A stretch of 60,322 nt of DNA, taken from the NCBI GenBank assembly GCA_032161105.1, contig JAVHTD010000018.1; one strand, given 5' to 3'. Numbering within the stretch: position 1 is the stretch's first letter; each line of letters starts with the position of its first letter. Under the pieces are notes generated by a model. It was not told the origin of the DNA. It did not search any database and saw nothing but the letters and a program-made list of their open reading frames with translations. The stretch comes from Candidatus Thermosaccharophagus tengchongensis. Its GTDB lineage: Bacteria > Armatimonadota > Fervidibacteria > Fervidibacterales > Thermosaccharophagaceae. Shown here piece by piece: positions 7,201 to 8,742 of this stretch. Both the position numbers and the translations under genes were made by a program.

Positions 7201-8742
7201 ACAGCAGATGCTGGTTACTTGACAAGGAGGTTGGTTGATGTTGCTCAAGATGTGGTTATAAAGGCGTTTGATTGCGGAACTGATGACGGTTTTGATATGA
7301 CCCCAATATATGACGAAAATGGTCAAGTTGTGATGGAACTTTGGGAAAGAATATGGGGGAGAATTGCCGCAGAAAATGTCGTTCATCCGCGCACAAAGAG
7401 CGTGTTGGTCAGGAGAAATGAAATGATAACGATGACAAAGGCTCAAGAAATACAGAAAAGTGGTGTCACAAAGGTAAAGGTGCGCTCACCTTTGACATGT
7501 GCACTCCCTCATGGAATATGCGCGATGTGTTACGGGATGGATTTGAGCACAAGAAGACTCGTTGACATAGGTGAGGCAGTTGGAATAATTGCAGCCCAGT
7601 CAATAGGTGAGCCCGGAACACAGTTCACGATGCGCACATTCCACACCGTTGTAGGTCCGAGCATCGTTGAAATACGGCAATATAAGACGAGAAGAGAGAG
7701 GGCTTTGAGGGAGATCACCGAGCGTGCGACGGAGGAAATGACCGTTTCCGACATGCTGAAGATAATTAAGAAAACTCCGAGAGGACTGCACGAGGAAGAA
7801 CAAAAAGAGCAAAGGATGAAGTGGTGGGTTAGATTGCATGTGCCGAGGAGGAGGGGGCTACTACGAGTTGAGGAATTGTTTGATGCACGCCGTCCACTTG
7901 GGCAGTCAATTATGGCTGAATATGACGGAGTTGTCAGGGAAATTATTAAGAGGGGCATATGGCGTATAGTGCTTGATGTAGAAGTCCCTGTTGATGACTT
8001 GGAAAGGCACATTGGCATGGAAATTGTTGAGGATGTGGTCTCACCAAGAACGCGCTCCGTTATTGTTCCAAAGGGCACCAAAATTGACGAATTGGTTATT
8101 GAGAAGTTGCGTGGAGCTATGGTCACGAAGGTGACCCTTAGAAGACCTTATGTTGTGCCATTCCACGCTGATTTTAAGGTGAAAGTTGGGGACAGAGTTG
8201 AAGCGGGTCAGCAACTCACAGGGGGCGCAATCAACCCACACGCTTTGCTTACGCTTCGTGGAGTCAAGGCTGTGCAAGATTACTTGCTGAGGGAAATTCA
8301 GACAGTTTATCGCTCGCAGGGAATTGATATCAATGACAAGCACATTGAGATAATTATCAGGCAAATGCTGCGAAAGCGCCGAATTAAAGACCCAGGGGAT
8401 ACTGAGTTCCTACCCGGACAGCTTGTTGACAGGGCGGTATTTGAGCGTGAAAATGCAAGGGTAAGGGCGCAAGGGAAACGAGAGGCAACGGCGGATTGGG
8501 TGCTCATGGGCATAATGCGTGCCGCTGAATCAACCGATAGTTGGCTCTCTGCAGCATCCTTCCAGAGGACTACGCAAGCTCTAACGGATGCAGCAATAAA
8601 GGGTAAAGTTGACTACTTGCTCGGTCTTAAGGAAAATGTCATCATTGGCAGGCTGATACCAGCTGGAACTGGCTTCTTTGCCAGAGCAAGAGTGGAATTG
8701 ACCCCTGCTGAGGAGCCATCCAGATCATTGCAATCAGAATGA
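4246..8742 (+). CDS. rpoC: DNA-directed RNA polymerase subunit beta'
   Basis: N-terminal Zn finger CACGKYK...[28 protein letters not shown], catalytic [23 protein letters not shown] and [20 protein letters not shown] at 4246 follows AAGGGG. Confidence 0.99.

Follow-up and report, generated by a model that had tools for sequence, protein, structure and literature searches.

Trigger-loop insert, predicted helical, and loss of conserved hinge residues in the RNA polymerase of Fervidibacterales

In Escherichia coli, the trigger loop of the RNA polymerase (RNAP) β′ subunit carries SI3 (β′ i6), a module of two SBHM/HABAS repeats placed between the trigger helices. Here we compare this and related systems with a trigger-loop insert encoded by rpoC of Candidatus (Ca.) Thermosaccharophagus tengchongensis (Armatimonadota; order Fervidibacterales), within a 60,322-nucleotide stretch of contig JAVHTD010000018.1 (assembly GCA_032161105.1) that was analysed as a whole and is called the window below. 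The insert is likewise a lineage-specific module between the trigger helices and would move as the loop folds; SI3, however, is a β-sandwich of ~190 residues, whereas the Fervidibacterales insert adds ~59 residues and is predicted to be all-helical, and E. coli retains GG, KDITGGLPR and HGARKG, unlike Fervidibacterales. The cyanobacterial and plastid Si3 (eight SBHM) shares with the present system a trigger-loop insert accompanied by lineage-specific, hinge-adjacent substitutions that alter catalysis and pausing (PMC7026648, PMC10895346). Cyanobacteria keep GARKG (chain 8syi_Z) and have no Gre factor; in Fervidibacterales, by contrast, Gre is kept, β′ is unsplit and the hinge glycines are lost.

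The hinge residues themselves are known from mutants. In E. coli, replacing either G778 or G782 of the bridge helix by Ala slows the enzyme ~2-fold and replacing both ~600-fold, one hinge glycine being sufficient, and K781R slows elongation ~3,000-fold with low fidelity; the proposed ion-pair partner of K781 is fork residue β546, given in that paper as D546 and present in K-12 as E546 (PMC5791816). For yeast Pol II, nearly all substitutions of A1087/G1088, which our alignment places at G938/G939, are lethal or severely sick (PMC5127505). Fervidibacterales is altered at the same bridge-helix positions, with K781R as the identical substitution, but the E. coli mutants are laboratory constructs, whereas in Fervidibacterales the changes arose in nature, occur in combination, have become fixed and stand beside β E546Q and a fork-loop insertion. 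In Thermus aquaticus and Deinococcus radiodurans, natural variation in the unit of trigger loop, F loop and bridge helix sets the temperature dependence of the enzyme (PMC3874190); that variation lies in the F loop and leaves the hinges intact, whereas Fervidibacterales replaces otherwise invariant hinge residues. Type 2 RNAP-β′ (Alvarez-Carreno et al. 2024, PMC11515920) includes two Armatimonadetes genomes (Table S2; one sentence says type 4) and is defined as lacking a trigger-loop insert, unlike the Armatimonadota loops described here. The accessible part of that article does not mention a helical insert, and no Fervidibacter entry was found in its supplement; the supplement of PMC11077087, as far as accessible, gave no match to the phylum names tried, and the accessible main text of PMC11535203 contains neither 'RNA polymerase' nor 'rpoC'. 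No prior description of the insert or of the hinge loss was found in the literature searched, which did not extend to subscription papers such as Lane and Darst 2010.

The rpoC gene of the window lies downstream of rpoB and encodes Rpb1 domains 1-5. Its features relevant here are as follows, with residues numbered as in E. coli K-12 RpoC and RpoB (RpoC reference locus L080) and 'aa' ranges counted along the window protein:

4243..8742, plus strand: rpoC, RNA polymerase β′, 1499 aa, the sole copy in the genome
7078..7083, plus strand: F-loop tip with P750A and D751L (Ala at 750 in 16/16 Fervidibacterales and also in PDB chain 7l7b_D)
7162..7179, plus strand: hinge at the N-terminus of the bridge helix, where HGARKG is replaced by FSSRRS (H777F, G778S, K781R, G782S)
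7606..7647, plus strand: trigger helix 1 (14 aa), with Q929, R933 and H936 retained and L930 replaced by Phe
7648..7854, plus strand: 69-aa trigger-loop insert region (aa 1136-1204), with GG absent and pN/pS 0.08-0.09
7855..7881, plus strand: trigger base helix 2, GLLRVEELF, with P1139 replaced by Leu and G1137 and R1140 retained

Translation of 7606-7881 thus bears out the first-pass annotation of this DNA, which had reported a charged 69-residue insert in the RpoC trigger loop: the 14-aa trigger helix is followed by 69 aa and GLLRVEELF, so that 69 residues separate FHT from GLLRV, and 18 K/R and 11 D/E occur in this loop. The catalytic His and Arg (H936, R933) are retained as had been stated, as are D460/D462/D464 of the NADFDGD triad, Q929, G1137 and R1140. 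The bacterial hinge motifs GxRKG (bridge helix), GG and GLP (trigger loop) are all absent.

To delimit the hinge change, 16 Fervidibacterales RpoC sequences were aligned with E. coli, with 99 rows from elsewhere in Armatimonadota (17 of them genome loci, the other 82 proteins retrieved by a loop profile and hence lacking independence) and with 12 outgroup rows of partial coverage. There are 180 β′ positions strictly invariant in E. coli, the 99 rows and all covering outgroup rows, and Fervidibacterales deviates at five of them: G778, K781, G782, G938 and G939. Since all five are hinge positions, the change appears targeted. Among the 23 Fervidibacterales genomes with a match, HGARKG is replaced by FSARRT in 18, by FSSRRS in four and by FSSRRT in one; G778, K781 and G782 are retained in 76/76 outgroup loci and 34/34 other Armatimonadota genomes, and in 0/23 Fervidibacterales. 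A further comparison considered the 120 best matches to the bridge-helix region, in a word-limited search that missed the sister family; 115 carry GxRKG and the remaining five are of the own-genus type. The literature treats these residues as essential, and the alignments indicate that they are lost throughout the order.

A metagenome pattern scan for RpoC with a residue other than Gly at 782 gave a consistent picture. It covered 30 of 64 parts, requires LADTALRT and is blind to Ala, Val, Asp and Glu at 782; within these bounds it returned 119 loci, including 86 RpoC without Gly782, of which 67 have kept G778 together with K781, 18 are without either glycine, and one is truncated. All 18 are of the Fervidibacterales type, with a 71-aa loop in 15 and three too short to show the loop. 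This pattern, single losses elsewhere and double losses in the Fervidibacterales type only, agrees with the E. coli finding that a single hinge glycine is enough. A frequent lineage in the same scan (L232, L233, L240 and others) has HGSRKS, in which G782S is the sole hinge change, and its trigger loop is of the ordinary length, 11 aa.

The insert has a wider distribution than the hinge loss. The nearest named records belong to Ca. Thermosaccharophagus (89-91% identity), Ca. Fervidibacter and Ca. Caldisaccharidevorator; 23 of the 24 Fervidibacterales genomes searched gave a match (the unmatched genome is 80% complete), and all 23 have a loop of 68-71 aa starting VV or VI, Phe930 and Leu1139. 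A loop profile extended by short flanks, which includes rows from some of the genomes searched, matches 130/131 Armatimonadota genomes, 118 across its whole length. For other Armatimonadota, 37 loci were examined, 17 from the genome search and 20 chosen so as to be enriched for odd matches; one has no motif and one is interrupted by Ns, leaving 35 parsed for loop length. The loop measures 59-122 aa in 35/35, GG is present in 36/36, and Pro1139 is kept in 3/35. The outgroups (three phyla, 90 loci with one unpublished genome excluded, 80 parsed for the loop) have a loop of 10-13 aa in 80/80, GG in 78/80 and Pro in 79/80. From these counts, the long loop and the loss of the GLPR proline are therefore traits of the phylum, and GG loss is confined to Fervidibacterales. 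What was initially described as one feature accordingly separates into two layers, the insert with the loss of Pro on the one hand and the loss of GG on the other.

These comparisons also refine the substitutions read from the window by the first-pass annotation. The change of Leu to Phe is present but hardly special, as Phe alone occurs in 2/82 outgroup RpoC (in one alignment, 8/11 Phe-bearing outgroup rows had been selected by a Phe-containing query), and it was rejected as a distinguishing feature. Where GG had been read as VV, Val followed by Val or Ile does come after Thr, but alignment to other Armatimonadota gives a two-residue deletion of GG instead. Replacement of the GLPR proline by Leu is likewise present without being specific to the order, and the proposed conversion of DITG to PRRR is uncertain: GGVAG-x-YLTG of other Armatimonadota is in register with the canonical GGVAG-x-DIT, and a DIT-like triad scores higher before the insert than after it in 34/35 other Armatimonadota and 23/23 Fervidibacterales, though weakly (4.6 vs 14.5). 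Asp occurs at -4 in 99/150 other Armatimonadota rows, and the insertion point relative to the DIT motif is uncertain in these alignments.

The suggestion that the loop is a phylum trait is borne out for its length; homology between the loop types, on the other hand, was not detected. In position, similar length and loss of the GLPR proline, the Fervidibacterales loop agrees with the main Armatimonadota insert. An hhalign comparison of the two reached a probability of 9% over 18 columns, with 2/60 shuffles equally high, and a hidden Markov model (HMM) of the main Armatimonadota loop run against the 17,570 own open reading frames (ORFs) did not place rpoC among its top matches. Common descent of the two loop types may be argued from position, size and the tree. 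In a quick RpoC tree computed with the loop omitted, the order falls inside Armatimonadota and is separated from the outgroups with a support of 100 (a careful search is unfinished), and its stem of 0.84 is comparable to those of other phylum groups (0.6-1.14). Horizontal replacement of rpoC was considered and set aside, because this quick tree keeps the order in Armatimonadota. The seven weak profile matches all belong to one family (f10), with a different, longer loop of 106-122 aa. This loop (L038, L101-L103, L106-L108) forms a third type that ends FFYxWxGESS-GIVRV and has no detectable similarity to the other two. Many Armatimonadota RpoC frames (L024, L025, L032, G050 and others) are 1500-2000 aa long, implying more lineage-specific inserts.

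The fold of the insert was examined by structure prediction. An AlphaFold model of aa 912-1499 (588 aa, 76 rows) places three helices in the insert, at aa 1140-1165, 1168-1177 and 1188-1199, where no strand is predicted; its predicted local distance difference test (pLDDT) score is 52-74 by block in the insert and <50 at the start of the bridge helix and in trigger helix 1. A second model, of the loop alone, is likewise helical at low confidence (mean pLDDT 36), and neither model has a strand of at least three residues in the insert. No SBHM-type Pfam match was found in the insert, nor any Pfam hit below E 0.02. The solved SI3 domains 2auk, 4iqz and 8h02 align to model residues 308-419 (jaw) and not to the insert (Z 4.4-4.9, in searches with more than the insert by itself). 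Foldseek with the 588-aa model returned RNA polymerases only among the matches listed, and VIA matches for the insert are generic helical ones at Z 3.8-4.2, which are not evidence of a new fold. The insert is thus predicted to be helical rather than SBHM/SI3-like, in line with the first-pass annotation. As to a stand-alone source of the insert, a 20-row profile with short flanks gave 45 hits among 1.84 billion representatives, none of them stand-alone (41 RpoC or fragments with the same loop type, one short-loop RpoC and three unrelated repetitive proteins), and an ESM Atlas search gave no match at 0.9 or above.

Several lines of evidence show that the insert is authentic. The source genome is metagenome-derived, with 44 contigs and 2.74 Mb, and holds one copy each of rpoC and rpoB. 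The stretch was found in 18 runs from 12 studies among the runs listed; of four runs compared in detail, X4, from another study, has a contig that spans 7000-8200 ungapped and differs at four bases, and the insert is also covered in X2 and X11. Because rpoC is single, the same loop occurs in 23/23 relatives, a contig of another study spans it and outgroup loops measure 10-13 aa, the insert is neither chance nor misassembly, and the assembly error that the first-pass annotation had named as a possible refutation is excluded. Uncorrected pN/pS (the ratio of nonsynonymous to synonymous differences per site) is 0.08-0.09 in the insert and 0.15-0.18 in the next 150 residues, pS being close to saturation; by this measure the insert appears to be under purifying selection and more strongly conserved than the neighbouring jaw region. 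An RNA-library contig over 7560-7828 at depth 4 was considered as evidence of transcription and rejected as not showing it.

The β subunit, encoded upstream in the window, is altered as well:

3..4064, plus strand: rpoB, RNA polymerase β, truncated at the contig start
1674..1706, plus strand: β fork loop bearing E546Q (reported ion-pair partner of β′ K781) and an insertion of 2 aa
1743..1745, plus strand: β E562Q, in the segment adjoining the bridge-helix cap

Residue β546 is Gln in 12/12 Fervidibacterales, Glu in 9/9 other Armatimonadota and acidic in 49/50 outgroups (50 of 51 RpoB outgroup loci were parsed), so that β′ K781R and β E546Q occur together in Fervidibacterales. The fork linker measures 11 aa in the order, two more than the 9 aa of 50/50 outgroups, and β562 is Gln in 12/12 Fervidibacterales versus Glu in 49 of 50 outgroups. 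Elsewhere in RpoB (~1599-1646), D516 is replaced by Gln or Ser and S531 by Thr in 12/12 Fervidibacterales (outgroups: Asp 49/50, Ser 50/50); both are rifamycin-pocket positions, and natural rifamycin insensitivity of Fervidibacterales RNAP is possible. A CxxC...CxxC segment at 2883-2984 resembles a zinc ribbon (Pfam Zn_ribbon_8, E 3e-7), its 30.8 bits lying below the 34.4 cut-off.

Gre factors were surveyed as candidate partners of the secondary channel. The Gre family (PF03449) is present in 40/41 genomes, which excludes a loss of the cyanobacterial kind. The own and only Gre (C20:38001-38717, before lysS) has the tip GEFIED instead of GDLSEN, and the divergent tip G[E/K]F[I/L/M]E[D/N] is found in 9/9 Fervidibacterales copies examined, with Lys at the first acidic position in two genomes (G001 and G002). 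Each genome of the own genus gives one Gre match, and lysS adjoins the divergent Gre in most Fervidibacterales loci; the sister family also carries a GDLSEN paralogue. Because Gre tips vary elsewhere in the phylum too (G038, G024 and the second copy of G031), the connection between Gre and the insert is no more than a lead. Separately, one genome with 8% contamination (G021; L075/L076) has exactly the same Gre as G036 from another order, likely on a contaminant contig.

Taken together, the sequence comparisons suggest, with about an even chance in our judgement, a stiffened and co-compensated bridge-helix/trigger-loop unit, probably tuned to heat, with the insert acting like SI3. In a working Fervidibacterales RNAP, the predicted three-helix module would ride on the trigger loop and could shift its balance between open and closed states through contacts at the secondary-channel mouth, as SI3 does (PMC11077087, PMC10895346). 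Loss of the glycine hinges from the trigger-loop tip and the bridge helix would stiffen the active site; the fork-loop and F-loop changes may relieve the K781 contact and so offset the hinge loss, and at high growth temperature thermal motion may supply the missing flexibility. Such an enzyme could have arisen in two steps: early in Armatimonadota the loop would have expanded and the GLPR proline disappeared, and Fervidibacterales would then have given up GG together with the bridge-helix hinge. Weakened contacts between bridge helix and β accelerate catalysis in E. coli (PMC3959191), and by analogy they plausibly offset the hinge loss here; mutual compensation between SI3 and trigger-loop residues is known from the E. 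coli enzyme (PMC11077087). The growth range of Fervidibacter sacchari is 65-87.5 °C (PMC11535203).

Several observations weigh against this interpretation. The E. coli mutant data concern Ala at 778 and 782, where Fervidibacterales has Ser or Thr. Co-occurrence confined to one clade counts as one event in evolution, which is not enough to demonstrate compensation. With a looser cut-off, 14 of 341 conserved positions deviate in Fervidibacterales and 8 of the 14 lie outside the F-loop, bridge and trigger region, and glycine content of RpoC is reduced only modestly, to 6.3% from 7.3%. Chthonomonas calidirosea (P0037), a thermophile, retains HGARKG and GG and the Thermus chain retains GLPR, so heat alone does not require the hinge change. 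The fold of the insert, finally, is predicted with a pLDDT of only 52-74 in the larger model, and the smaller model averages 36.

One alternative is entrenched drift. The insert would then be an appendage tolerated at the surface, and the hinge changes would have become established stepwise by mutual compensation, with no gain in heat adaptation or regulation. In its favour, loops at this site measure 59-122 aa and come in types without detectable homology, other lineages tolerate a single G782 loss, and slow growth, with a minimum generation time of 14 h in F. sacchari (PMC11535203), may relax the demand on elongation rate. Yet conservation is higher in the insert than in the jaw region beside it, the five losses at invariant sites all fall on hinges, and the Fervidibacterales stem is not unusually long; we regard drift as somewhat unlikely. 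In a second explanation, the insert serves mainly as a docking or gating surface for a co-evolved secondary-channel factor, such as the divergent Gre, and the hinge changes are a consequence of this partnership. The altered tip in all nine Fervidibacterales copies examined, the single Gre match per own-genus genome and the reported tie between SI3 position and Gre/DksA binding (PMC10895346) speak for it. It is nevertheless unlikely, given that tips vary in other Armatimonadota, that the sister family keeps a GDLSEN paralogue, and that no evidence connects Gre with the hinge of the bridge helix or with the fork loop.

Escape from natural RNAP inhibitors, or from phage proteins binding the bridge-helix cap, the secondary channel or the rifamycin pocket, seems improbable. 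The altered positions do include salinamide contacts (β′ R738, A779 and G782; PMC4029172), CBR pocket positions (P750 and H777; PMC3959191) and β D516 and S531 of the rifamycin pocket. However, R738 is altered throughout the phylum, no hot-spring producer of such inhibitors is known to us, and one substitution would be enough for escape, so that losing both glycines and GG and acquiring K781R would be needlessly costly. An assembly error, chimera or decaying paralogue, which a metagenome-derived genome in 44 contigs might invite, is vanishingly improbable, having been refuted by the single copy, the 23/23 relatives, the contigs of other studies and purifying selection.

Throughout a whole order, then, the only RNAP misses both hinge glycines and carries K781R alongside candidate suppressors, at positions whose change cripples the E. 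coli enzyme; the predicted helical insert would in turn represent a non-SBHM class of trigger-loop insert marking a phylum. That this amounts to a natural counter-example to the requirement for glycine hinges in bacterial RNAP is a tentative proposition, which we think has perhaps one chance in a few of being true. The order includes a cultured member, F. sacchari, that could serve as a source of the enzyme.

Smaller variations were seen elsewhere in RpoC and in the window. The motif LHRLGIQAF at ~5824-5832 reads LHRLSIEAF in four rows of the own genus only, and two loci (L050 and L051) have DFDGDA instead of DFDGDQ. Near the rpoC C-terminus (~8520-8570), L1314E and F1319W are order-specific, and E1327 of SFQET is Lys or Arg phylum-wide. 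Among the other genes of the window, a 1615-aa ORF at 22508-27352 joins a peptidase M28 domain to an FtsX-like permease domain, and an ORF at 46454-47317 matches both T2SSF and the ClpX zinc finger, perhaps as a gene fusion or else through a join made in assembly. Four sulfatase genes are clustered with a CBM4/9 protein at 33589-42413, which fits polysaccharide use.
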